Assembly: GCA_016929395.1 (NCBI GenBank)
Contig: JAFGIX010000069.1
Coordinates: forward strand, 4,986 to 68,985
Direction of reading: 5' to 3'
Source of the DNA: Candidatus Zymogenus saltonus
GTDB lineage: Bacteria; Desulfobacterota; Zymogenia; Zymogenales; Zymogenaceae
Length of the DNA: 64,000 bases
Made by a program: the position numbers and the translations under genes
Notes under the pieces: model-generated
Told to the model about the DNA's origin: nothing
Seen by the model: only the letters and a program-made list of their open reading frames with translations
Databases searched by the model: none
Shown here: positions 210-14,769 of the stretch, piece by piece
Numbering within the stretch: the first letter of the stretch is position 1
How the letters are laid out: each line of letters begins with the position of its first letter

Positions 210-1508
210 ATGAAGGTCGTAAAATATTTTCTCGCGGGGCTGGGGATCATCTTTCTCCTCCCGGTTCTCCTCATCTCCGTTATGCTGATCTACTGGGATC
301 TTCGCTCCCCGCCCCCCTTCGAGATCGATCCGGTCTTAAAGCTTGAAAACAGGGTGGCCGTTCCCCACGGCGATGATCCCAGGACGCTCCACAAGTCCAA
401 CACGGACATGGTCTTCTACAACGGATCGTTTTTCCTTATCCACGCCCGGACGAAGTGGCACCTGGAGGACAAAAACGGGGCCCTCATCGTCCAGAGGTCC
501 AACGATGCCGTAAACTGGGAAGAGGTTGCAAGCATCACCGTCCCGGACACGGACGTAAGGGACCCGAAGTTCGCCGCCATCGATGGCAGGCTCTTCGTCT
601 ACTTTCTACCCAACTTCCTATTCGACCCGGAGCCGATGACCACCTACTGGACGGTCAGCGACGACGGGGTCAACTGGGAGACGCCCAAGGAGCTCGATAC
701 GATAGCTGTGGTTGACCGCCGCGGGGACAGTACGGCGGGGAAGGTCACGTCCGGCGGGTGGAACCTGTGGAGGCCTAAGACCAAAGACGGGAAGAACTGG
801 TATGTGATGGCCAGCGGCAACAAGAAGAGGGCGGAGGTCGGCGTCGGGTACGGCGGGAAGATCGAGGGGGACGATGTGGAGGACGAGGGAACGACGCATA
901 TGATAGTCCTCTTAAGGTCGAGCGACGGTGTCAACTGGGAGGAGGTGTCGGAGGTCTACGTCGCCCGCGGCCTCTTCGAGCCGTGCATGGAGTTTCTGCC
1001 GGACGGCCGGATCATCTCGGCAATCCGATGCAGCAGCCTCGGCACCGGCGGGTACGCCTTCGGCAATCCAACGGCGAACACGATCATCGCCGTATCCTCA
1101 GAGCCGTATAAGGAGTGGAAGTACTCCTACAGCTTCATAACGAGGCTCGACGGCGCCACGCTCTTCCCCGTTAACGGGAGGATATTCGCCGTGGGGAGAA
1201 ACCACATGGGCCCGAGGTTTGACATGGGCAATCACCTGGCGACGAAGAGGACCGCCTTCTACGAGGTGAAGGAGAAGGAGCTGGTATTTCTTTTCGACCT
1301 TCCCAGCAACGGCGACACATCGTACACCGGCGTGGTCAGGAGGGGCGACTACATCTACGCCAGCTACTACACCTGCCCCGTCGACAAGGACTACCCGTGG
1401 GTTGTGGGGGTCTGCTTCTTCCCGAAGACCGAGATTCGGGTGGTCAAGCTCTCCGCCAAGGGATTGCTGGAATACGCCGACAGGGTCGGGGCATCGGGCG
1501 GGAGGTAA
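210..1508 (+). CDS. BNR/Asp-box repeat protein, sialidase-like glycosyl-hydrolase fold, N-terminally membrane anchored
   Basis: 432-aa ORF with an N-terminal hydrophobic anchor (FLAGLGIIFLLPVLLISVMLIYW). Three Asp-box-like motifs S-x-D-x-G-x-x-W are present (SNDAVNWEE, SDDGVNWET, SSDGVNWEE). Periodic codon usage is consistent with coding. The internal ORFs of the other frames are GC-driven artefacts. Confidence 0.7.
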   Translation: MKVVKYFLAGLGIIFLLPVLLISVMLIYWDLRSPPPFEIDPVLKLENRVAVPHGDDPRTLHKSNTDMVFYNGSFFLIHARTKWHLEDKNGALIVQRSNDAVNWEEVASITVPDTDVRDPKFAAIDGRLFVYFLPNFLFDPEPMTTYWTVSDDGVNWETPKELDTIAVVDRRGDSTAGKVTSGGWNLWRPKTKDGKNWYVMASGNKKRAEVGVGYGGKIEGDDVEDEGTTHMIVLLRSSDGVNWEEVSEVYVARGLFEPCMEFLPDGRIISAIRCSSLGTGGYAFGNPTANTIIAVSSEPYKEWKYSYSFITRLDGATLFPVNGRIFAVGRNHMGPRFDMGNHLATKRTAFYEVKEKELVFLFDLPSNGDTSYTGVVRRGDYIYASYYTCPVDKDYPWVVGVCFFPKTEIRVVKLSAKGLLEYADRVGASGGR

Positions 1509-2369: not shown

Positions 2370-2383
2370 AATAGTACTATTAT
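2368..2383. promoter_or_regulatory. perfect 16-bp palindrome ATAATAGTACTATTAT, candidate TetR operator overlapping the -10 element and start codon
   Basis: The sequence is self-complementary. It overlaps the ATG at 2382. Confidence 0.5.
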
Positions 2384-2972
2384 GGGAAGAAAGGCGAAAT
2401 TTGGTGGGACCGATTTCCTCGACGCGGCCTTGAAGCTCGTGGCGGAGGGGGGTGTGGGGGCGGCCACGGTGTCCGCCATCGCGGAAGAGCTGAAGGCGCC
2501 GATAGGCTCCGTCTACCACAGGTTCCCCACAAAGGAGATACTCCTTGCCGAGCTCTGGCTCAGGAGTGTGGAATCCTTCCAGCACGGATTCTTGGAGGCG
2601 TTGGGCCGCCTCGACGGGCTTTCGGCGGCGCTCCACACCCCCCGATGGGTCAGGGAAAATCCGATCGAGGGCAAAGTCCTTTTGGTCCACAGGCGGGAGG
2701 AGCTGGTCTCCGGGGATTGGCCCGGGGAGGTCAGGGAAAAAGCGGCGCGCCTCTCCCGGGGGCTGGACGAGGGGATAAGGGATTATGCCCGGCGAACCTT
2801 CGGCGACGTTGCGGAGACGTCCATTTTGAAGACGACTTTCGCGCTGATCGACGTCCCCTATTCGGCGACAAAGAGGTATCTTGTGATGGGAAAGATCCCC
2901 CCGAAAATGTTAGACAAGATGATAGAAAAGACATTTTACGCCGTTATCGGAGGAAGAGATGAAGATCTATAA
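2382..2972 (+). CDS. TetR/AcrR family transcriptional regulator
   Basis: N-terminal HTH typical of TetR (TVSAIAEELKAPIGSVYHRFPTKEILLAELW). Length is 196 aa. Confidence 0.85.
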   Translation: MGRKAKFGGTDFLDAALKLVAEGGVGAATVSAIAEELKAPIGSVYHRFPTKEILLAELWLRSVESFQHGFLEALGRLDGLSAALHTPRWVRENPIEGKVLLVHRREELVSGDWPGEVREKAARLSRGLDEGIRDYARRTFGDVAETSILKTTFALIDVPYSATKRYLVMGKIPPKMLDKMIEKTFYAVIGGRDEDL

Positions 2973-3468
2973 CGTACACGAGCGAAATTTCAGCGCAGAC
3001 CTCGAAAAGGTCGGCGCCCTGTTGAATACCCTGGCGGGAGAAGACGACCGACTCTGGCCGAGGGAAAATTGGCCCCCCATGGAGCTTGACGCCCCAGTCG
3101 GGGAGGGGGTGAGGGGTGGACACGGGCCGATAAGATATTTTGTGACCGAATACGTCCCCGGAAGGAGGGCTACCTTCGATTTCATCGACCAGGGCCTCTC
3201 CGAGGGGCTTAACGGACGCCACCTATTCGAGGTCGTTCCACGCCGGGGGTCGGTACTGCTTCGCCACATCGTTGACGCCGACTGCGACCTGAAGAAATGG
3301 CTTAAATGGCAGGTGTTCATCGGCCCCCTTCACGACGCCCTCATGGAGGACGCCCTTGACAACGCCGAGGTGGAGCTGAGCGAAAATCCTAAAAAGCGGT
3401 CGAGGTGGAGCCTCTGGGTCAGGTTCCTCCGCAGGATGTTGGCACGAAGGCGCCGGACCTCCTCATAG
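2959..3468 (+). CDS. hypothetical protein, possibly a small ligand-binding (SRPBCC-like) protein co-transcribed with the TetR gene
   Basis: 169-aa ORF overlapping the TetR stop by 14 nt. No catalytic motif was recognised. Confidence 0.55.
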   Translation: MKIYNVHERNFSADLEKVGALLNTLAGEDDRLWPRENWPPMELDAPVGEGVRGGHGPIRYFVTEYVPGRRATFDFIDQGLSEGLNGRHLFEVVPRRGSVLLRHIVDADCDLKKWLKWQVFIGPLHDALMEDALDNAEVELSENPKKRSRWSLWVRFLRRMLARRRRTSS

Positions 3469-3502
3469 GCCGCATCGTTAATCTTGTTGTTTAGACGGTT
3501 AC

Positions 3503-3542
3503 GGCAAGGGGGCCGAATAGATAATGAAGAGGCCCCCTTGCC
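3503..3542. other. strong stem-loop (12-bp perfect GC-rich stem, 16-nt loop) without a U-tract
   Basis: ggcaagggggcc ... ggcccccttgcc, 35 nt after the stop of the preceding ORF. Confidence 0.4.
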
Positions 3543-3818
3543 TGTCAACGCAATGTATATACGGCGCATCTCACCACAGGCTGAAGGCGTCTCCTTAAAC
3601 ATCAAATAGCTCCAAATCCCTTCATATCCCGCATACTTTAATCAAAATCGGGCGGAGACCTCCCGAAAATCCGTTCCCCTAAAGACTTCCCATTTGGCGA
3701 TAAGGGTGGTAAAATAATCTGCAAAGAGGATTAATTTACCAAAAAATCGCTAAACTTAAGAACCATATCGAAAAAAATCTGTCTTATCTCTAAAACCAAC
3801 GAAGTGTGGGAGGTAAAC

Positions 3819-6230
3819 ATGAGAAGGATAATTCTGCTTTTTATCATCTCGACTTTTTCATTGTCGATATTGACGTTTTCACCGGTTCAGGCGTTTTCGG
3901 AGGAGGAGACGAAGCTTCCCGAGCTTCCGAACAGCTCCGTATCCGTGCCCTGGTCCGATTTCAAGGACCTGATCAAAAAGCTCCTCGTTCCGCCGGAGGA
4001 GCCGCCGGAGCCCCCCCTGCCCCCGATTGACTACTCGATATCCGAGTCGCACTACGCCGGCAGGTTGGAGGGGGAGAGCGCGGTCTTCGATGCGGAGTTT
4101 GCCGTCGACGTACTTGCCGAGAACAAGTGGATAGAGGTGCCGATACTCTCAAGCAGCCTTGCGGTCTCCGACGTTACCATGGACGGCAAGGGTGTGACGC
4201 TGAGGACGTCGGGGAGCTACTATTATCTGATCATGAACAAACCGGGAAGACACATTCTAAAGCTCACGTTTTACAAGCCGGTGGATAAGGGATCGGGGAA
4301 GGTGGGCGTCAACGTGCCGATACCGATGGCGCCCGTATCCACGCTGGAGTTTTCCGTGCCCAAGCCTGGGATGGATTTCACGATCGATCCAGCAAATTAC
4401 AAGAGGACGACGGGTTTGGAGGGATCGACAAGGCTCGAAGCGGCGCTGCCGGTGACAAGCAGCGTCTCCATCTACTGGAGTCCCGCGGTCCCGGAGGAGA
4501 TATCGGGAGAGCTCAGGGTCATGGCCAAGGTCAATACGCTGATCTCTGTGGGGGAGGGCTTTCTCGGCGGGGTATCGACCATCAACTACGAGATCCTCCA
4601 CAAATCGATATCCACCTTCTCTTTTCTGGTGCCGAAGGATATTGATATTATTGACGTCAAGGCGGAGGGGATCAGGGACTGGGAGATAACCCCCGAAGGG
4701 GAAAAGGTGAAGGTGACCGTCAATATGAGCTTTGAGGTCAGCGGCGACTTCAGCCTGGCGGTAATCTACGAGAAAAACATGGGGGACACCACGGCCCAGG
4801 TGGATGTCCCGGAGATAGAGGTCCTCAATATTGTTAGGGAGCAGGGCTTTATGGCGGTTACAAAATCGACGGAGGTAGAGGTGGTCGAGCTAAAGGCCGA
4901 GAACCTAAGCCCCCTCGACGTTACGGAGCTCCCCGGGGAGCTGATCTCCGCCACCGAAAACTCGATCCTCTACTCATATAAATACCTGAAACACCCGTTC
5001 GGCCTGAGGCTCGACGTCACGAAGAACGAGGACGAGGAGGTTGATACCTGCGTCATCATAAAGGAAGAGCTGACTTCCCTTCTTACCGTCAGGGGGGACC
5101 TGGTCACCAGGGCGCGCTTTACCGTGAGGAACACGACCGAGCAGTTCCTGAAGCTCAAGATAGATGAGATGTTTGCAGAGGAGCCTGCGGGGGAGGATAC
5201 TGCGGATGAAGGATCGGTCGGGGAAGATATGGGAGAGGGAACAACCAAGGTGTGGAGCGCCTTCGTCTCCGATAAGCCGGTAAAGCTTACGAGGGACAGA
5301 TACGGCAGGGTTTTGATCCCGCTGGACAGGTCGGTCAAGACGGACGGCGGGATGACCTCTTTCGTCGTGGAGATGACCTACAGCACAGAGACGAAGCCGT
5401 TCAACAGGATAACGGGCTGGAGGACGTTTTACGCGCCTAAGACCGACTACAGGGTGGGAGAGATGACCTGGACACTATATCTCCCGAAGAAATACGTTTA
5501 CAGAAACCTCGGGAAGGATATGGAGCTGATATCGGCTCCTGTGATTTTTCCCGTATCCAAGCCGGGCTACGACGACACGGGGGATATGGGAATCTCAACG
5601 GGTGAGGGATTTGTGGCCGAAGAAGAGATGTCGATGGAAAAGAAGGAGTATGCCCCCGCCCCGTCGGGGGGGCTCCGGAGCCAGACCGAGATGAACGTAA
5701 TCAGAGACAGTATCGACACCATAGGGGGCAAATCGGGAAGGAAGCGGGGGGTCCTGCCGGTAAGGGTCGATATCCCATTTTCCGGTTATAAGTTGGACTA
5801 CAATAAGACGATCGTAAAGAAGGGGGAGGAGTCCATCGTCAAGTTCAGGTTCCAGGGAATGGACGTTAAGAGATGGATCTCCTATATTGAGATACTGGCG
5901 TGGGCCACTTTTTTCGCCACCCTGCTGTTCGCCGTCAGGTCTGCGAGAAAGAGGAAGAGGCTCTACATAAATAAGGATAAGTCGATAGCCGTCGCCGTTT
6001 CCTTGGGGGTAATAATCCTCTTACACCTTTTTTTCATCCTCGATTTCCACGCGCTCAAGTGGGGTCTGTTTTGGGGGCTGGTTGTCGGGCTTCTCTACTA
6101 TCTGAACGATATCAGGCACGAGGTCAAAAAGAGGCTGGCCGAAATCAGGAAAGACAAAGCAGAGGGCAAGGATGAAAAGTCCGAGAAGGATGAGTCGAAG
6201 AAGAGGCGGACGAAGAAAGATGAAGAATAG
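3819..6230 (+). CDS. large secreted protein with a C-terminal TM anchor and lysine-rich cytoplasmic tail (paralog A)
   Basis: The ORF track starts it at 3804, but ATG 3819 is preceded by GGGAGG (3807-3812). The signal peptide is MRRIILLFIISTFSLSILTFSPVQA. The N-terminal motif VPWSDFKDLIKKL is followed by a Pro-rich linker. A C-terminal hydrophobic helix is followed by a KDKAEGKDEKSEKDESKKRRTKKDEE tail. Confidence 0.8.
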   Translation: MRRIILLFIISTFSLSILTFSPVQAFSEEETKLPELPNSSVSVPWSDFKDLIKKLLVPPEEPPEPPLPPIDYSISESHYAGRLEGESAVFDAEFAVDVLAENKWIEVPILSSSLAVSDVTMDGKGVTLRTSGSYYYLIMNKPGRHILKLTFYKPVDKGSGKVGVNVPIPMAPVSTLEFSVPKPGMDFTIDPANYKRTTGLEGSTRLEAALPVTSSVSIYWSPAVPEEISGELRVMAKVNTLISVGEGFLGGVSTINYEILHKSISTFSFLVPKDIDIIDVKAEGIRDWEITPEGEKVKVTVNMSFEVSGDFSLAVIYEKNMGDTTAQVDVPEIEVLNIVREQGFMAVTKSTEVEVVELKAENLSPLDVTELPGELISATENSILYSYKYLKHPFGLRLDVTKNEDEEVDTCVIIKEELTSLLTVRGDLVTRARFTVRNTTEQFLKLKIDEMFAEEPAGEDTADEGSVGEDMGEGTTKVWSAFVSDKPVKLTRDRYGRVLIPLDRSVKTDGGMTSFVVEMTYSTETKPFNRITGWRTFYAPKTDYRVGEMTWTLYLPKKYVYRNLGKDMELISAPVIFPVSKPGYDDTGDMGISTGEGFVAEEEMSMEKKEYAPAPSGGLRSQTEMNVIRDSIDTIGGKSGRKRGVLPVRVDIPFSGYKLDYNKTIVKKGEESIVKFRFQGMDVKRWISYIEILAWATFFATLLFAVRSARKRKRLYINKDKSIAVAVSLGVIILLHLFFILDFHALKWGLFWGLVVGLLYYLNDIRHEVKKRLAEIRKDKAEGKDEKSEKDESKKRRTKKDEE

Positions 6231-8274
6231 GGCTGTAAAGGCGATAGGCCGTTCGGCGGTCTTGCGTTCGGCGGTTTTGATATCTTTCTTCCTTATCCTG
6301 TCGCTGGCACTGTTTCCCCTTGCCGGCTCGGCGGTCGCCGCCGGGGAAAAGGGGAAGGCGCCCGATATGCCCAACACCGACATCACCATACCGTGGGATG
6401 AGTTCAAGGCGCTGATAGAGAAGTTCTTCGAGGAGGAACCGACCCCGCCCACGCCTCCTCCGGTCGAGCTGTCCGTCAAGGAGGCAAAATACACGGCCGA
6501 TCTCTCGCCAGATCTTATCACCGTAAACGCCGACCTTGACGTTATCACCTTCGGTGAGGGTTGGCGGGAGCTTCGGGTCATCGGGGACGGGGCCTCCCTC
6601 GTCTCGCTTACGGTGGACGGGAAATACGCCCCCACGAAGACGAAGGGCGATTCGGTCTACGTCTATCTGAAGGGGAACGGGGCGGAATCCAAAAGGTACA
6701 ATGTGGGGGCGCGCTTTTATGTCTTTGCACCGAAGACGCCGGGCCCACACAGTGTAACTTTTTCGGTTCCAGAAGCGGCCGTGGGCACGATAGCGATGGG
6801 CTACGACCGCAAGTTAGAGAACGTAGGCATAAACGGGATCGTCACATCGAGGTCGGCTGGAAGGGTAAACGGCGTCTTGAGGGGTGAAGGGGCGATAAAG
6901 ATAGACTACACCGTGTCAGCGCCGACGGAGGAGAGAGAGGCGGTCAGGAAGAGTAAACCCGAAGAATCTATAGTCCTCTCCGAGGTGATGACGGTGATGG
7001 ACGTCGAGGAGGAGGCGCTCTTTGTCGACGCCGTCGTTGACTTCGAGGTTCGGGGCGCCCCGACCACCTCATTTGAGATAGGGTTCCCCGATTATCTGGA
7101 GCTGATCGACGTCACGGGCGAGGGGGTCTCGGGATGGGAGCTCAACGAGAAGAAGAACGGTCTGAAGGTAAGGATCGGCTACGAGGTCGTCGGAAACTAC
7201 TCGCTGACGCTCTCCTTCGAGAAAGATTTTCCCGAGGGCACAAAAGAGATCGAGTTTCCGAAGATCGTGCCCTTAAGCGTCAAGCGGGACGCGGGCTACC
7301 TTGCCGTGGTATCGGGCGGCGGCTTTGAGATATCGGAGGGAAAGTATGCGAAGATCGCCCCCCAGGATCCCTCGGAGCTTCCAAGCAAGCTCTTGAACCT
7401 GAAGGGGCTTTCGCCGGTGCTGTCCTACAGGTACACCAACCCCAACTGGCTGCTGGCGCTTAATGTGGAGAAGGGGGAGCTTCTCCCGGTCCTCTCAGCC
7501 AACGCCGATTCGGCGAACGGCGTGGGCGTTGTCACGGCGGACGGAAAAATGGTGTTGAGGACCCACTTCTATATCCGAAACAGGAACCTACAGTACCTTA
7601 AGATCACGATTCCGGAAGGAGGGGAGTTCTGGTCGGCGAGGTTAAAGGGAAGGCCGCTCAAGGTATCCGTAGACAGCGAAAAGAAGATACTCGTTCCCCT
7701 TCCCCTGACGGTTGAGAGAAATGCCGAGCCATTTTTGGTGGAGACGGTCATCTTCGTCCCCGTGGACGAGTCGGACACCCTGGGAAGGATATTAATCGAG
7801 CTTCCCACGCTCAACATCCCCGTCTCGGAGATGATGCTGACCCTCTACCTCCCGGAAAGAAACGATTACGTTCTCTTCGGCGGCGATATGGAGGAGATCG
7901 AGTACTTTGAGAGGATCCTTGAAGAAAAGGACACCTCCTCGGCATTTTACCAGAAGAACATCAAGCTTAGGAGGGACGTCTACGAGAGGCAACAGATGCT
8001 GGAGGACGTGATCAACAAGGATGAGTCGATCGCCCCCGATTCGTCGACTGGCGAAGACGTTTCGTCCCAGTTTCAGATACCCTTAAGGGGGGAGATCCAC
8101 CGCTTCGTGAAACTCATCGTGATCTCGGAGAAGAGCCACGTCACGGCGAATTATGTGAACGGTCGCCTCATGGGAGGGATAAAGCTGGCAGTCTTTTTAG
8201 CCCTCGCCATCGCGCTTTTTATCGGGGGAAGGAGGTTTGTCAGGGAGATGGGCATCAGGCTTAAAAAGAGCTGA
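6220..8274 (+). CDS. large secreted protein with a C-terminal TM anchor (paralog B of the upstream gene)
   Basis: The ORF track starts it at 6172, but the signal peptide begins at MKNRAVKAIGRSAVLRSAVLISFFLILSLALFPLAGSAVAA (ATG 6220). That start overlaps the upstream stop by 11 nt. It carries the same N-terminal motif (IPWDEFKALIEKF) followed by a Pro-rich linker, and a C-terminal TM (IKLAVFLALAIALFIGG). Confidence 0.8.
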   Translation: MKNRAVKAIGRSAVLRSAVLISFFLILSLALFPLAGSAVAAGEKGKAPDMPNTDITIPWDEFKALIEKFFEEEPTPPTPPPVELSVKEAKYTADLSPDLITVNADLDVITFGEGWRELRVIGDGASLVSLTVDGKYAPTKTKGDSVYVYLKGNGAESKRYNVGARFYVFAPKTPGPHSVTFSVPEAAVGTIAMGYDRKLENVGINGIVTSRSAGRVNGVLRGEGAIKIDYTVSAPTEEREAVRKSKPEESIVLSEVMTVMDVEEEALFVDAVVDFEVRGAPTTSFEIGFPDYLELIDVTGEGVSGWELNEKKNGLKVRIGYEVVGNYSLTLSFEKDFPEGTKEIEFPKIVPLSVKRDAGYLAVVSGGGFEISEGKYAKIAPQDPSELPSKLLNLKGLSPVLSYRYTNPNWLLALNVEKGELLPVLSANADSANGVGVVTADGKMVLRTHFYIRNRNLQYLKITIPEGGEFWSARLKGRPLKVSVDSEKKILVPLPLTVERNAEPFLVETVIFVPVDESDTLGRILIELPTLNIPVSEMMLTLYLPERNDYVLFGGDMEEIEYFERILEEKDTSSAFYQKNIKLRRDVYERQQMLEDVINKDESIAPDSSTGEDVSSQFQIPLRGEIHRFVKLIVISEKSHVTANYVNGRLMGGIKLAVFLALAIALFIGGRRFVREMGIRLKKS

Positions 8275-8836
8275 TATTCTGAGACGTTAAAATATTCCCT
8301 CCTCAAATACGGATCGAATCGGCAAGATATTTAATGGGGGGGTAACGTCTCATTTAAAATTGACTATTGCAGCAATGAAGGGGGGTTTATCTTAGGAGGG
8401 AACGGGGACAGCCACAAATCTCAAAAATGCGAAGCGGGCGGAGGCTTGAAACGGCTGACGCCCGTTGTGTTTTTCAGTTGATACAGTTCCGGTTTTTTAA
8501 GCCGACCGGGTATTGAAAAAATCGGGAGTATAGCTAAGCGACTGAATGATTTAAGACACCTTTTGATATTTAATTGGGGGATGATGGTTTAAGAAAGGAT
8601 GGTGGCCTTTTGCTGGGCTGGGACTCTCAACGCAGATCGAGGCTTTCCCAACCCTCGCCTCATTTTTCGCCGGGCCCCCCTTCCCGCCCCCGGCATAATA
8701 TTCGCCTGCTCTCCTTGAGAAATGGCCCCTAATATAAACTGAGACCCCCCCTCTTTCAATAAAACAACCGACAGCCCAAAAACGGGGGATCAGATAACAT
8801 GGCCAGACCTGCCCACATGGCCCGACCTTCAGGGAC

Positions 8837-9685
8837 TCACTCCGCCGCCGTCACGCACCTAAACCCGACGTTTCCAAAGCGCGCCTTCAGGTTGGCCGGA
8901 TGGGCAAGGGAGACCCCGATTTCATCCTCGCCTGTAAGGTAGCTTCCTCCCATCAATGTTTTCAGGGGGTTGGTCAAAAAGGAGAGGGAGTTTATAAAGG
9001 GGACGAAGGAGAGAAAACCTGTCTTGCTTTCGTCTATTGTCCACTCCCAGGCGTTTCCGACAACGTCGTAGAGGCCGAACTCGTTGGGGGGGTAGCTCCC
9101 CACGGATCTTATCTCCCCCTTTTCTTTTGTGTGGAGCTTTTCGTTGGTGCGGTAGTTGGCCTTTTCGGGATCGATCTCGTCTCCCCAGGGGAATCTTGCA
9201 GTGCTATTGCCCCTTGCGGCGGCCTCCCACTGCTTCATGGTGGGGAGGGACTTCCCCTCCCATTTTGCGTAGGCCATCGCCCCCTCCCAGGAGACGGTGA
9301 CTACCGGGTGGTTTTCGTAGCCCTCGACGACGGAAAAGACGCCCTCCCCGCTGCCTTCGGCACTATTCTTTGTGATCTTGAACTCGGAGCCCTTGTCCGT
9401 ATTCACCCAGAGGAGCCAGCCTTCCTTTACCTCCGGATATACGGCGTTCAGGAAGCGGGCGAATTTCTCATTCGTCACCTCGAAGGTGTCGATGTAGAAG
9501 GGATCGAGCTCGACGATCTTCTCTTTATCGGGATCGCCGCAGCTCATTGTGTAGCTCCCGCCGGGGATCAGCGCCATTGATTCGGCGTCAGGCGCAGGGG
9601 CGGCCGTGTCTTGAAAGGCGAAGGAGTATGAGAAAAGAAGAAGCGGTAAAAATATAAGGCCGAAAATTTTTATATATCTCTCCAT
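8837..9685 (-). CDS. formylglycine-generating enzyme (FGE/SUMF1) family protein, secreted
   Basis: Signal peptide present. FGE-family motifs GNAWEWT and GFRCV are present. Confidence 0.85.
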   Translation of the reverse strand: MERYIKIFGLIFLPLLLFSYSFAFQDTAAPAPDAESMALIPGGSYTMSCGDPDKEKIVELDPFYIDTFEVTNEKFARFLNAVYPEVKEGWLLWVNTDKGSEFKITKNSAEGSGEGVFSVVEGYENHPVVTVSWEGAMAYAKWEGKSLPTMKQWEAAARGNSTARFPWGDEIDPEKANYRTNEKLHTKEKGEIRSVGSYPPNEFGLYDVVGNAWEWTIDESKTGFLSFVPFINSLSFLTNPLKTLMGGSYLTGEDEIGVSLAHPANLKARFGNVGFRCVTAAE

Positions 9686-12362: not shown

Positions 12363-13142
12363 ATGAAGGAATTTTTTGAGACATTGGGAAAGTGGTTCAT
12401 AAAGGCCATGCTCTACCTCGAGGGAACTACAAGGCTCACCTTGGAGGCGGGGAAGGTGCTCTTGACTCCCCCCTTGAATCTCCGCTCGGCCGTCGACCAG
12501 ATCGAATATATAGGGATAAAGTCGATGCTGATCGCCCTCATAACGGCGCTCTTTACGGGGGCGGTAATGGCGCTGCAGATGGCCTTTGCGCTTAAGAGGT
12601 TCGGGGCGGCCGATTTTGCCGCAAACGTCCTGGCCGTGTCGCTGGTCAGGGAGCTGGGTCCCGTCCTCACGGGGCTTTTAGTGGGAGGAAGGGTGGGCGC
12701 CGGGATCACCGCGGAGGTGGGCTCCATGCAGGTGACCGAGCAGATAGACGCGATAAAGGCGCTGGGGGCCGATCCGGTAAGGGAGCTCGTGGTCCCCAAG
12801 ACCTTGGCCTGCATGATAGTCCTTCCCATCCTTACGGTATACGCCGATATCGTGGGAATTCTCTCCGGGATGGTCGTTACCGTAATAGAGCTGGGGGTGG
12901 AGCCGGTCAAGTATCTTGATCAGGTCGTCAATGTGCTGACGATAAGCGACTTTATCGGCGGGCTTGGGAAATCCTTCTTCTTCGGAATAATAATAGGGAT
13001 CGTCGGGTGCTACCGCGGCTTCACAACCACCGGCGGGACCGTGGGAGTCGGAGTTGCCACGACATCTTCGGTCGTAACGATCTCCCTGTCGATACTTGTG
13101 GCGGACTTCTTTCTAACGAAATTATTTATGCTCCTGTTTTAG
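12363..13142 (+). CDS. mlaE: MlaE-family ABC transporter permease
   Basis: Characteristic MlaE TM protein (LVRELGPVLTGLLVGGRVGAGITAEVGSMQVTEQIDA). Confidence 0.9.
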   Translation: MKEFFETLGKWFIKAMLYLEGTTRLTLEAGKVLLTPPLNLRSAVDQIEYIGIKSMLIALITALFTGAVMALQMAFALKRFGAADFAANVLAVSLVRELGPVLTGLLVGGRVGAGITAEVGSMQVTEQIDAIKALGADPVRELVVPKTLACMIVLPILTVYADIVGILSGMVVTVIELGVEPVKYLDQVVNVLTISDFIGGLGKSFFFGIIIGIVGCYRGFTTTGGTVGVGVATTSSVVTISLSILVADFFLTKLFMLLF

Positions 13143-13152
13143 CGGAGAAGAA

Positions 13153-13893
13153 ATGTCGTTTATAGTCTACAGAGGAATAGAGAAGGCGTTCGATGAGAAG
13201 GTTATATACCGGGGGCTCGACCTCTCCATCAACAGAGGGGAAACGATAACCATAATCGGCGGCAGCGGATCGGGCAAGAGCGTGCTGCTCAAGATGATGA
13301 TAGGCCTGATAATGCCGGACAGGGGGGAGATAATTGTCGACAAGACGAACATCGTCGAACTCTCAAAGGAGGAGCTCGTAAAGGTGCGGAGCAGGATAGG
13401 GATGCTATTTCAGGGGGGCGCTCTCTTCGATTCGATAAACGTCGGGGAGAACGTTGCCTACGGCCTAAAGATGCACACGGAGATGTCGGATAAGAAGATA
13501 GAAAAGAAGGTCTCCCGCTGTCTTGAAATGGTGGGGCTTTCCGGAATCGAGGGGATGATGCCGGTAGACCTGTCGGGGGGGATGAAAAAGAGGGTGGCCT
13601 TGGCCCGCGCCATCGCCTACGACCCGGAGATCATCCTCTACGACGAGCCCACGACGGGGCTCGACCCGACAAATGCAAACAGGATCAACAACCTGATAAT
13701 AGAGATGCAAAAACTGCTCAAGGTGACGTCTGTTGTGGTAACCCACGATATGAACTCGGCCTTTTCCGTCTCCGACAGGATGGCCATGCTCTACAGGGGA
13801 AAGATAGAGGTCGTGGGGACGACAAATGAAATCAAAAAGTCGAAAGAACCGCTGGTCAACGACTTTATTCGTGGAAATATTGGAGAGCTCTAA
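13153..13893 (+). CDS. mlaF: MlaF-type ABC transporter ATP-binding protein
   Basis: Walker A GGSGSGKS and ABC signature LSGGMKKRVALARA. Confidence 0.9.
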   Translation: MSFIVYRGIEKAFDEKVIYRGLDLSINRGETITIIGGSGSGKSVLLKMMIGLIMPDRGEIIVDKTNIVELSKEELVKVRSRIGMLFQGGALFDSINVGENVAYGLKMHTEMSDKKIEKKVSRCLEMVGLSGIEGMMPVDLSGGMKKRVALARAIAYDPEIILYDEPTTGLDPTNANRINNLIIEMQKLLKVTSVVVTHDMNSAFSVSDRMAMLYRGKIEVVGTTNEIKKSKEPLVNDFIRGNIGEL

Positions 13894-13905
13894 AGGAGGC
13901 TTCTT

Positions 13906-14769
13906 ATGGCAAAGAAGACTATACAGGAAATAAGGGTGGGTCTGTTTATCTTCGTGGGCCTTGCCCTCGCGTTCATCTTGGTTTTTTCCATCGGGAGCGA
14001 AAAACACCTCTTCGAGGAACAATACACCCTTTACGCCCACTTCAAGGACGTGGGGGGGCTGAGGGCCGGGGCCCCGGTGAGGCTCGCCGGGGTGGATGTG
14101 GGCACCGTTTCGGTGGTGTCGTTTCCGACAGATCTCGAAAAGAAACTGATAGACGTTGAGCTAAAGATAAATACGGACGTGAAAAAGAGGATAAGGGCCG
14201 ACAGCGTGGCCAGCATAAAGACGAAGGGGGTTCTGGGGGATAAATACATCGCTGTTACCATGGGGAGTCCCGCTGAAAAGATGTTGACGAACGGCGAGCG
14301 TCTTGAGTCGGAAGAATCGGTGGAGCTCTTCAACTATCTGGAGCGCGCGGACAAGATCGTAGACAACACGCTTTCCATCACCGAGTCCCTGGACACGTTT
14401 CTCAAACCGATCAAGGACAAGAAATCGGGTGAAAACGTCGCCAGAATACTCAAATCGGCCGATGAAATCGTAACCGAGGTAAAGGAAGGGGAGGGATCGC
14501 TCCACACCATCATATACGGGGGGAAGGAAGAGACGGCCGATACCATAAGCAACCTCGATGCCTCCCTGGTAAGCCTAAGGAGCATACTGGAGAAGGTGGA
14601 CAAGGGTGAGGGGACTCTCGGGGCGCTTGTAAATGACCCGACCGCCTACGAGGATCTGAAGATACTCCTGGGGGGGGCGAACCGGAGCAAGGTGATCAAG
14701 TCCGTTGTGAATTACAGCATTCAGAAGAAGAAAAGGGAAATAGAAAGGGAGGAGAAAAAGGATAAATGA
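13906..14769 (+). CDS. mlaD: MlaD/MCE-domain protein
   Basis: N-terminal TM followed by an MCE domain (RAGAPVRLAGVDVGTV). Confidence 0.85.
   Translation: MAKKTIQEIRVGLFIFVGLALAFILVFSIGSEKHLFEEQYTLYAHFKDVGGLRAGAPVRLAGVDVGTVSVVSFPTDLEKKLIDVELKINTDVKKRIRADSVASIKTKGVLGDKYIAVTMGSPAEKMLTNGERLESEESVELFNYLERADKIVDNTLSITESLDTFLKPIKDKKSGENVARILKSADEIVTEVKEGEGSLHTIIYGGKEETADTISNLDASLVSLRSILEKVDKGEGTLGALVNDPTAYEDLKILLGGANRSKVIKSVVNYSIQKKKREIEREEKKDK

Follow-up and report, generated by a model that had tools for sequence, protein, structure and literature searches.

A translationally coupled pair of paralogous proteins, predicted to be anchored in the inner membrane and closest in predicted fold to Ost1/ribophorin I, in Candidatus Zymogenus saltonus

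Like the two proteins described here, DUF4139/DUF4140 (MuiA-like) proteins are bacterial, large, secreted and rich in beta structure, and have no known function. In eukaryotes, the oligosaccharyltransferase (OST) subunit Ost1 (ribophorin I, RPN1) has a single transmembrane (TM) helix and two luminal beta domains that resemble each other, and binds glycosylated peptide (PMC7226087). Swp1 (ribophorin II) has a luminal domain followed by three C-terminal TM helices (PMC7226087). Published sequence searches found Ost1 only in eukaryotes and in TACK/Asgard archaea (PMC11417166), and for bacteria a single-chain OST is described (PMC11417166, PMC7226087). Our search of the literature on DUF4139 and on bacterial ribophorin homologues returned nothing relevant.

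We analyzed two adjacent genes, designated A and B, in a 64,000-nucleotide stretch of DNA (the window). Their products are public entries of Candidatus Zymogenus saltonus (Table 1).

The A-B gene pair and its flanking regions

The initial annotation reported two consecutive genes of 803 and 684 aa overlapping by 11 nt, and this was confirmed: the ORFs lie on the same strand in different frames, and both products are present in public collections. Gene A is preceded by a Shine-Dalgarno sequence, GGGAGG, at 3808-3813, 5 nt upstream of the ATG. The start of gene B at 6220 is backed by the N-termini of its orthologues (MKNRAVKAI, MRNRAVKAI and MNNKAVKAI). Since the start codon of B lies inside the last codons of A, the two genes appear to be translationally coupled. 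The corresponding junction in relatives is an 11-nt overlap (L001), a 4-nt overlap (L010), a 1-nt overlap (L018) or a 6-nt gap (L002).

Pairwise comparison of A and B gave 27% identity over 584 aa (E=1e-52). The similarity spans nearly the whole ectodomain and extends beyond the N-terminal motif, which upholds the earlier view of a paralogous pair. Judged from the DNA, A and B are old paralogues that share one transcript and are coupled in translation.

The block immediately 5' of gene A is a candidate regulatory element of the A-B operon, either promoter or 5'-UTR; the intergenic DNA outside it diverges from the counterparts in loci L012 and L011. A sigma-70-like site is located upstream of this block, at 3687-3715. 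An Rfam scan of 3300-8900 for regulatory RNA found nothing. The hairpin downstream of B possibly marks the end of a two-gene operon; it is weak evidence, because the number of such sites in the region is not above the shuffled expectation.

Table 1 Features of the A-B locus (positions in the window).
Feature	Position	Strand	Basis or remark
Conserved block 5' of A (...CTGTCTTATCT...CTAAAACC..., including the Shine-Dalgarno sequence)	3760..3818	+	Aligns with upstream regions of L012 and L011
Gene A	3819..6230	+	ORF, 803 aa from ATG; exact public protein MBN1574164.1; orthologues 44-84% identity
A signal peptide, aa 1-25, MRRIILLFIISTFSLSILTFSPVQA	3819..3893	+	Hydropathy and sequence inspection; cleavage likely after VQA
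A N-terminal helix motif, aa 41-57, VSVPWSDFKDLIKKLLV, and proline-rich linker, aa 58-69	3939..4025	+	Alignment and predicted helix 45-55
A periplasmic all-beta ectodomain (predicted), aa 70-572, about three beta-sandwich regions	4026..5534	+
A juxtamembrane beta hairpin, aa 640-680, GVLPV…DIPF.G…K.IV	5736..5858	+	Strands predicted at 657-663 and 673-680
A membrane anchor, three predicted TM helices and tail	5877..6227	+	Hydropathy; AlphaFold2 helices 681-712, 719-738, 744-802
A/B overlap, 11 nt, ATGAAGAATAG	6220..6230	+	Two frames; B start codon within the last codons of A
Gene B	6220..8274	+	684 aa; exact public protein MBN1574165.1
B signal peptide, aa 1-41			
B N-terminal motif helix, aa 54-70	6379-6429		Proline-rich linker follows, aa 71-82
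B beta ectodomain, aa 83-560	6466-7899		Helical linker follows
B juxtamembrane hairpin, aa 619-647	8074-8160		
B single TM helix, aa 651-672	8170-8235		12-aa basic tail
Terminator-like hairpin and T-run	8450..8476	+	176 nt downstream of B; consensus scan only

Predicted topology, fold and cellular location

Hydropathy and sequence inspection supported the signal peptides previously assigned to both proteins. A conserved N-terminal block followed by a Pro-rich linker had also been noted. The PWxDFKxLI helix is conserved in both A and B, each of which carries the linker, and PW.(D/E)F is nearly invariant in the 33 A-like and B-like relatives (P44, W45 and F48 of A), which makes this segment one of the most conserved. 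The ectodomains were predicted to be all-beta with pLDDT values of 80-90, in agreement with the earlier description of a mostly-beta extracytoplasmic region; the mean pLDDT of the whole A model was 74. The ectodomain of A contains an acidic insert particular to its lineage at aa 450-475 (nt 5166-5243). A marginal signal of internal duplication was seen between regions D1 and D3 only (hhalign probability 61%).

The ectodomain of A is followed by a disordered linker (aa 573-617), a helix (aa 618-637) and the juxtamembrane element, in which G644-V648, D651, I652, F654, G656, K663 and I665 are invariant across the A family. The most conserved segments of the family include the N-terminal helix and this membrane-proximal hairpin, and the invariant columns are mostly G, P, W and hydrophobic residues. 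HExxH, GxMEN and LPxTG motifs were absent from A and B; neither protein carries a catalytic motif.

Each protein had been described as ending in one TM helix and a short tail. This holds for B and not for A, for which hydropathy and AlphaFold2 predict three helices (TM1 at about 687-706, TM2 at 723-742 and TM3 at 747-766). The TM1-TM2 loop of A (RSARKRKRLYINKDK) is strongly basic and placed in the cytoplasm; a K/E-rich charged tail of 37 aa (aa 767-803; 15 K+R and 12 D+E), also cytoplasmic, follows TM3. MlaE, MlaF and MlaD, whose Pfam families were seen in the syntenic locus L002, are encoded at 12363-14769, so the organism has an outer membrane. In such a diderm, helical C-terminal anchors place A and B in the inner membrane, facing the periplasm. 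Thus, both are predicted to be exported by their signal peptides and held in the inner membrane by three and one helices, respectively, with beta-sandwich regions of about 500 residues in the periplasm.

In their structural models, A and B come nearest to Ost1/ribophorin I, both in predicted fold and in overall layout. When the B model was searched with Foldseek, the top eight PDB matches were all RPN1/Ost1 (E 5.6e-11 to 1e-8), and the next class scored about 1e-6. The AlphaFold2 models were built on only 32-33 aligned sequences, with pTM of 0.42-0.52 and TM-scores to Ost1 of 0.2-0.34, so the relative arrangement of the domains is uncertain. The likeness to Ost1/RPN1 (6c26_1, 6ezn_A, 6s7o_E) consists of a type I layout with a signal peptide, tandem beta-sandwiches outside the cytoplasm and a C-terminal TM helix, together with a lack of catalytic residues on both sides. 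The tandem sandwiches of the Ost1 fold are present in the predicted models, and the single C-terminal helix of the type I topology is found in B but not in A.

The differences are considerable. A and B are bacterial, about 200-350 residues longer than Ost1 with extra domains, and carry the N-terminal helix, the polyproline linker and the juxtamembrane hairpin. Unlike Ost1, they form a paralogous pair, lack the cytosolic four-helix bundle and have no STT3 partner among the ten other large ORFs of the window scanned with Pfam, and A has three TM helices. Ribophorin_I was not matched in Pfam by A or B (E<=1) or by the 33 relatives (E<=10), and a family profile searched against PDB sequences found no RPN1/Ost1 chain at E<=10. 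Alignment by hhalign against human RPN1 and yeast Ost1, a weak two-sequence profile, gave a probability of 0.2% (E 0.27). The three C-terminal helices of A recall Swp1 (PMC7226087); Ribophorin_II was likewise not matched in Pfam (A, B and 33 relatives), nor did a profile of the C-terminal region match PDB sequences at E<=10. The automatic UniRef name of A, 'OST subunit 2', was reproduced by no search and was set aside as an unreliable label.

Further resemblances concern the fold. The N-terminal beta domain of M1 aminopeptidases, LTA4 hydrolase and tricorn factor F3 (8slo_A, 1z1w_A, 5fwq_A) matches as an accessory domain only; A and B are membrane-anchored, lack the thermolysin-like catalytic domain with its HExxH and GxMEN motifs, and gave no Peptidase_M1 match in Pfam (A, B and 33 relatives). 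PIG-T, the scaffold subunit of the GPI transamidase (7w72_T), scored much lower and shows no similarity in sequence; a transamidase partner is lacking. Small CBM2-type and cohesin-type sandwiches (3ndy_E, 5dhe_B, 2xbd_A, 1ohz_A) superpose at 2.1-3 A; this is a match of fold only, at 5-13% identity, without a CBM match in Pfam, nor could residues of a binding face be identified.

A widespread family of coupled pairs and fusions

The pair had been regarded as unusual. However, an exhaustive profile search recovered about 9,400 clusters (50% identity), of which 3,270 scored E<=1e-30. The family, which occurs in lineages including Desulfobacterota, Acidobacteriota and Verrucomicrobiota, is common but unnamed. 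Word-indexed homologue searches gave 14-22 matches each owing to their word filter, and the size of the family was visible only by the exhaustive search. Every member carrying a source name is 'hypothetical' or misnamed.

The initial annotation had placed the proteins in no named family, and our searches agree. A and B had no match at E<=1 in Pfam or NCBIfam, no Pfam family recurred among the 33 relatives at E<=10, and Pfam found nothing in distant relatives, fusions or giant members. The PADLOC models of anti-phage defence were not matched, nor were PDB sequences by single sequences, the family profile or the C-terminal-region profile (profiles at E<=10). The suggested resemblance to DUF4139/DUF4140 or MuiA was not borne out, since PF13598, PF13600 and TIGR02231 were matched neither by A or B (Pfam and NCBIfam, E<=1) nor, for Pfam at E<=10, by the 33 relatives. 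The family is without a description in Pfam, NCBIfam or the literature and is named by no database. Defining it would close an annotation gap covering thousands of large envelope proteins.

Members occur nearly always in twos or threes, as coupled gene pairs, fused pairs of about 1,500 aa, gene triplets or giants of 2,000-2,800 aa. The order A then B was found in 7/7 related genomes of a reference-genome scan (L011-L017; copies are frameshifted in 2/7) and in L001-L003; this locus search used an A-only alignment and reached only relatives within Zymogenia. Coupled pairs were also present in two unrelated metagenome contigs (L010 and L018), and fused single polypeptides in P0037/L007, L008, L019, L006, P0036, P0040 and P0060, where a four-helix membrane cluster keeps both ectodomains periplasmic. 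These observations strengthen the earlier suggestion of a two-component envelope system. About ten distinct homologous neighbourhoods contained no conserved neighbour gene. The downstream FGE-sulfatase, PrsW, MBL and MlaEFD genes were considered as partners and rejected, their synteny being class-level and their strands or operons different.

The L008 and L019 fusions each join a leading half that clusters with A to a trailing half that clusters with B; in some other fusions both halves are A-type and arose by recent duplication (45% identical). Of the two L018 genes, the first clusters with A (96% bootstrap). For A/B orthology at greater depth the tree is suggestive and weakly supported, with one deep B clade at 43% bootstrap only. 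Three C-terminal helices are found in A and its close orthologues but are not conserved in the wider family, and both L018 genes encode one TM helix each; the number of TM helices therefore does not reliably tell A from B in the family as a whole.

Proposed function of the pair

We hold with moderate confidence that A and B are two subunits of a self-contained, non-enzymatic complex that is tethered to the inner membrane and serves in the periplasm as a scaffold or by binding a polymer. The two proteins would assemble as a heteromer. Candidate contact sites, as their conservation suggests, are the PWxDFKxLI helix at the N-terminus, borne on a polyproline spacer, and the GVLPV hairpin next to the membrane. 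Such a complex would form a platform without enzymatic activity at the outer surface of the cytoplasmic membrane, would need no other dedicated gene, and may bind an extended polymer, either an exported polypeptide or a glycan chain, by analogy with Ost1 holding a glycopeptide beside the OST active site. Two old paralogues that are constantly paired or fused are expected to form a heteromeric complex in the inner membrane, which is directly testable.

A purely mechanical role is rather unlikely. A and B would then be passive struts, spacers or tethers that span the periplasm, set the spacing of the envelope or connect the inner membrane with either peptidoglycan or the outer membrane, and do not handle exported polymers. 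The long modular ectodomains with polyproline spacers and disordered linkers, the lack of a catalytic motif and the expansion of relatives to 6-10 modules per protein (2,000-2,800 aa), an amplification typical of structural or 'ruler' proteins, are in keeping with this. However, Pfam detected no peptidoglycan-binding or outer-membrane-interacting domain (OmpA_C, LysM, SPOR, TPR and others), conservation is strongest in the membrane-proximal hairpin and the N-terminal helix and not at a distal tip, and the protein most similar in fold is a scaffold subunit close to the membrane. It is decidedly unlikely that the paralogues act independently, each as a homo-oligomer without an A-B complex, their adjacency being a residue of tandem duplication. 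In the 22-kb locus of one relative (L004) the gene stands alone, and the fusions of two A-type halves imply that homotypic pairing may be the ancestral state. Against this, even at 27% identity A still precedes B and the two remain tightly coupled, A-type halves are fused to B-type halves, and the first L018 gene is an A orthologue, so the duplication is older than the split of those lineages.

The surface-exposed adhesin or exoprotein pair proposed at first, perhaps related to DUF4139/MuiA, is very improbable. Alpha-helical C-terminal anchors in a diderm indicate the inner membrane and argue against surface exposure; no adhesin or autotransporter Pfam domain, LPxTG or other outer-membrane-targeting feature was found in A, B or (by Pfam) the 33 relatives; DUF4139, DUF4140 and TIGR02231 were not matched; and order and architecture are kept across phyla, unlike those of fast-evolving adhesins. 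Hardly more credible is the idea that A and B are genuine accessory subunits of a bacterial N-oligosaccharyltransferase, homologous to Ost1 and Swp1 and working with a PglB/STT3-type enzyme. The three helices of A mirror Swp1, the UniRef name of A points the same way, and the single helix of B mirrors Ost1 (PMC7226087). Nevertheless, neither sequences nor profiles resemble Ribophorin_I, Ribophorin_II, RPN1 or Ost1; Pfam detected no STT3/PglB-like or glycosyltransferase domain in the ten other large ORFs of the window that were scanned; and no oligosaccharyltransferase occurs in the 10+ homologous neighbourhoods. The three-versus-one helix pattern is not kept in the family, and A and B are paralogues of each other, unlike Ost1 and Swp1, which are not known to be related in this way. 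The described bacterial OST is a single chain and OST1 is confined to eukaryotes and TACK/Asgard archaea (PMC11417166, PMC7226087).

We give a slim chance to the family being genuinely homologous to Ost1/ribophorin I, as a very remote bacterial branch, with the A/B complex standing beside the Sec/YidC export site and holding nascent exported chains or their glycans. The non-catalytic ribophorin module of the eukaryotic and archaeal translocon-OST machinery would then have a counterpart widespread in bacteria, beyond eukaryotes and TACK/Asgard archaea. Should the likeness to Ost1 stem from shared ancestry or a shared way of working, it would bear on the origin of the accessory subunits of the eukaryotic OST and translocon. 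Even with nothing but a sandwich fold in common, the family remains a new and abundant component of the envelope in poorly studied phyla.

Gene pair and protein anatomy

Our ORF calls agreed with the two genes of 803 and 684 aa reported in the initial annotation, and place them on the same strand (table below). The ATG of A lies 5 nt downstream of a Shine-Dalgarno sequence (GGGAGG), and that of B falls within the final codons of A, so that the two genes overlap by 11 nt (ATGAAGAATAG). Orthologues of B start with MRNRAVKAI, MNNKAVKAI or MKNRLTKAI; therefore, 6220 was preferred as the start of B, and an upstream in-frame ATG is unlikely. Co-transcription and coupling of the pair are predicted directly from this arrangement. 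The GC content of the region was the same as that of its flanks, giving no hint of a foreign island. Both proteins are identical to public records (MBN1574164.1 and MBN1574165.1) named 'hypothetical protein' from the MAG of Candidatus Zymogenus saltonus (Desulfobacterota, class Zymogenia).

Coordinates of features in the window and in homologous loci.
Feature	Locus	Coordinates	Strand	Description
Upstream flank	window	210-1508		membrane-anchored BNR/BT_1020-like beta-propeller protein
TetR-family gene	window	2382-2972
Upstream gene	window	2959-3468
Hairpin	window	3503-3542		perfect 12-bp GC-rich stem, 16-nt loop
Sigma-70-like site	window	3687-3715		only one upstream of A
Imperfect palindrome	window	3707-3741		overlaps the -10 element
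Conserved block	window	3760-3818		about 59 nt, abuts start codon of A
Gene A	window	3819-6230	same as B	803-aa ORF from ATG
Acidic insert of A	window	5166-5243		aa 450-475
Unlikely start of B	window	6172		in-frame ATG
Gene B	window	6220-8274	same as A	684-aa ORF
RSAVL-RSAVL duplication in B	window	6247-6279		aa 10-20
Downstream flank	window	8837-9685	opposite	secreted FGE-sulfatase-family protein
MlaE/F/D genes	window	12363-14769
Split A/B	L016	6001-8263		long-read soil MAG MFD03899
Split A/B	L017	5983-10197		long-read soil MAG MFD04716
Three paralogues	L005	10001-21761		Phragmitibacter flavus, VAUV01000001.1
Giant with Malectin neighbour	L009	10001-19547		Verrucomicrobiota MAG, JAZDKK010000028.1

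The alignment of A with B spans 584 residues at 27% identity (E = 1e-52). It thus covers the entire ectodomain, beyond the N-terminal motif, confirming the earlier claim of paralogy. A shared plan was derived from alignments and two AlphaFold2 models. Signal peptides without a lipobox (ending SPVQA, followed by F, in A and SAVAA, followed by G, in B) precede a short conserved helix, (V/I)(S/T)(V/I)PW.(D/E)FK.LI, in which P44, W45 and F48 are nearly invariant among 33 sequences. Next come a polyproline spacer and an ectodomain whose roughly 500 residues form beta sandwiches (pLDDT 80-90). Between the ectodomain and the membrane anchor lie an acidic, poorly ordered linker that includes one helix, and then a strongly conserved juxtamembrane hairpin (in the A family, GVLPV..DIPF.G….K.IV). 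Among linear elements, conservation is highest in this hairpin and in the N-terminal helix carried by its polyproline stalk. Invariant columns are mainly G, P, W and hydrophobic residues; neither protein contains an HExxH, GxMEN or LPxTG motif, and A has one cysteine and B none.

Three transmembrane helices were predicted in A (about 687-706, 723-742 and 747-766), with a basic loop (RSARKRKRLYINKDK) between the first and second and a C-terminal tail of 37 aa (15 K+R, 12 D+E) after the third. B has a single helix and a 12-aa basic tail. The initial annotation was right on the signal peptide, N-terminal block, Pro-rich linker and beta region, and its single C-terminal helix holds for B only. The positive-inside rule puts the two tails in the cytoplasm and the two ectodomains outside it. 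MlaE/F/D genes, whose Pfam families were read in the syntenic locus L002, lie directly downstream, indicating a diderm organism. Thus, A and B are predicted to be exported and anchored in the inner membrane with periplasmic ectodomains, rather than surface-exposed as earlier proposed.

Two local peculiarities were observed. Within its third beta region, A carries an insert of about 26-30 aa that is acidic and disordered (EMFAEEPAGEDTADEGSVGEDMGEGT), and for which only its three closest orthologues have a counterpart. The RSAVL-RSAVL tandem duplication makes the signal-peptide n-region of B unusually long and basic, and is absent from orthologues.

An unnamed family organised in pairs and triplets

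A and B matched nothing in Pfam, NCBIfam or PADLOC, and neither single proteins nor profiles found a match among PDB sequences, in keeping with the initial annotation, which could not place them in a named family. Its guess of a DUF4139/MuiA-like protein found no match either: across the full set of 33 aligned members, Pfam at E<=10 gave no recurring family, with DUF4139, DUF4140, Ribophorin_I/II and BatD all absent, and Pfam was likewise empty for distant relatives, fusions and giants. The automatic UniRef name of A, 'Dolichyl-diphosphooligosaccharide--protein glycosyltransferase subunit 2', was reproduced by no sequence method.

Word-indexed searches gave only 14-22 relatives, nearly all in Zymogenia-type MAGs. 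An exhaustive profile search of 1.84 billion cluster representatives gave 9,400 proteins at E<=1e-3. Tightening the cut-off to E<=1e-10 or E<=1e-30 left 6,499 and 3,270 of these, respectively. Named members are 'hypothetical protein' in Acidobacteriota, Verrucomicrobiota, Candidatus Alcyoniella and unclassified bacteria. A and B thus belong to an abundant bacterial family without a name. One JGI entry is wrongly labelled 'pseudopilin PulG'; the central region of the giant member P0042 (2,507 aa, JGI) contains a segment like a prepilin/H-X9-DG-type protein (…MLLPALGKAKAKAQRI…FADGSVEQI…), which probably explains this label.

Among Zymogenia relatives, A is followed directly by B in L001 (11-nt overlap), L002 (6-nt gap), L003 and all seven genomes retrieved from the GTDB species-representative collection (L011-L017). 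In two of the latter, L016 and L017, the genes are split over several frames, probably by assembly frameshifts rather than as pseudogenes. Coupled pairs were also present in the unrelated metagenome contigs L010 (783 and 743 aa, 4-nt overlap) and L018 (754 and 777 aa, 1-nt overlap). Two complete units are fused in many representatives, each about 1,400-1,850 aa long in total (P0036, P0037/L007, P0040, P0060, L008, L019 and L006), in which the three helices of the first unit and the signal-peptide-like helix of the second form a four-helix membrane cluster, so that both ectodomains remain periplasmic. L007 carries a third family gene downstream of the fusion, and Phragmitibacter flavus three consecutive paralogues (1,140, 1,466 and 1,300 aa); L004 has a single family gene within its 22-kb locus. 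In giants of 2,000-2,800 aa (e.g. 2,315 aa in L009), the module at profile positions of about 220-540 is present six to ten times, with transmembrane clusters mid-protein and at the end. The family is organised in units of two or three copies. P. flavus is culturable, and the family could be studied there; its third paralogue gave weak TPR matches and its second a faint STN match.

In a neighbour-joining tree of ectodomains, first genes or halves grouped with A and second ones with B, including the L008 and L019 fusions. Four fusions depart from this pattern, both of their halves being A-type and the product of a recent duplication. Bootstrap support was 96% for A with the first gene of L018 and 43% for a single deep B clade, making an ancient A/B split likely, short of proof. 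Helix count is an unstable marker of type, as there is one helix in each L018 gene product and two or three in each from L010. That two diverged paralogues are persistently paired or fused can be read directly from these sequences.

Structural likeness and possible function

The AlphaFold2 models, built with 32-33 aligned sequences each, had a mean pLDDT of 74 (A) and 77 (B) and a pTM of 0.42 and 0.52, respectively. The top eight Foldseek matches of model B in the PDB were all RPN1/Ost1 (E 5.6e-11 to 9.6e-9, probability 1.00, 430-530 aligned columns), followed by integrin alpha legs (about 1e-6) and aminopeptidase N (about 1e-4). TM-scores were low (0.2-0.34) because relative domain orientations differ or are poorly predicted. 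The modelled domains are of the widespread LTA4H-N/M1-N sandwich type, and the Ost1 match may reflect no more than this common fold. Ost1/ribophorin I is closest in multi-domain layout and C-terminal helix, and a eukaryotic and archaeal OST subunit is thus, as modelled, the nearest structural analogue. Aligning the family with human RPN1 and yeast Ost1 sequences from the PDB by hhalign gave a probability of 0.2% and E of 0.27; therefore, the resemblance is structural only, and Ribophorin_I membership is not established.

Based on gene coupling, export and anchoring, the lack of a catalytic motif, the invariant G, P, W and hydrophobic positions, and persistent pairing, we infer that A and B would form a heteromeric complex. 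On the outer side of the cytoplasmic membrane, it would serve as a non-enzymatic platform and bind an extended polymer, either an exported polypeptide or a glycan chain; the juxtamembrane hairpin and the stalked N-terminal helix are candidate inter-subunit contacts. We give this proposal as a whole an even chance. The pair would then be a type I membrane scaffold like Ost1, differing in that it is bacterial and paired, with no oligosaccharyltransferase nearby. Analogy to the closest folds would make polymer binding the likeliest activity: the PIG-T scaffold subunit, the M1 aminopeptidase N-domain, which lines a peptide groove, the polysaccharide-binding CBM2 modules, and Ost1. Ost1 combines one transmembrane helix with two luminal beta domains that resemble each other, and binds glycosylated peptide, which it is thought to prevent from sliding back (PMC7226087).

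The main alternative is a passive strut or spacer spanning the periplasm; the module amplification in giants favours it, and we regard it as rather improbable. A further reading is that A and B are true OST accessory subunits. A Pfam scan of the ten other large ORFs of the window revealed no STT3-type enzyme or glycosyltransferase, and no homologous neighbourhood contained an oligosaccharyltransferase. Bacterial OST is a single chain, and sequence searches found OST1 only in eukaryotes and TACK/Asgard archaea (PMC11417166, PMC7226087). Such a role is very unlikely. Equally little credence is given to the adhesin or DUF4139 reading, as the proteins lack LPxTG and face the periplasm from the inner membrane. 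The interest lies in the family size, the annotation gap and a clear, testable pairing rule; the Ost1 link could bear on where the accessory subunits of translocon and OST came from.

Neighbourhoods and flanking sequence

No flanking gene was shared among about ten distinct neighbourhoods; thus, the system looks self-contained. The downstream FGE-sulfatase, MBL, PrsW and MlaEFD genes were rejected as partners, being class-level synteny in other orientations or operons; the FGE-sulfatase-family gene adjoins the pair in L002, not in L001. The L009 giant lies tail-to-tail with a gene encoding Malectin and Glycoamylase domains. Malectin is a partner of ribophorin I in eukaryotes, and this single case may be a coincidence.

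The block abutting the start codon of A (…GAACCATATCGAAAAAAATCTGTCTTATCTCTAAAACC…GGGAGG) has conserved counterparts in two orthologous loci, L012 and L011; in L011 the remaining intergenic region is unalignable. The block matched no Rfam family, and may be a promoter or 5'-UTR regulatory element. The hairpin (GGCAAGGGGGCC / GGCCCCCTTGCC), located 35 nt past the stop codon of the upstream gene and without a following T-run, may be a terminator or transcript stabiliser separating the A-B operon from upstream genes. The palindrome (TGGTAAAATAATC-N9-GATTAATTTACCA) is not conserved in L012, and may serve as an operator, e.g. one bound by the product of the TetR-family gene.
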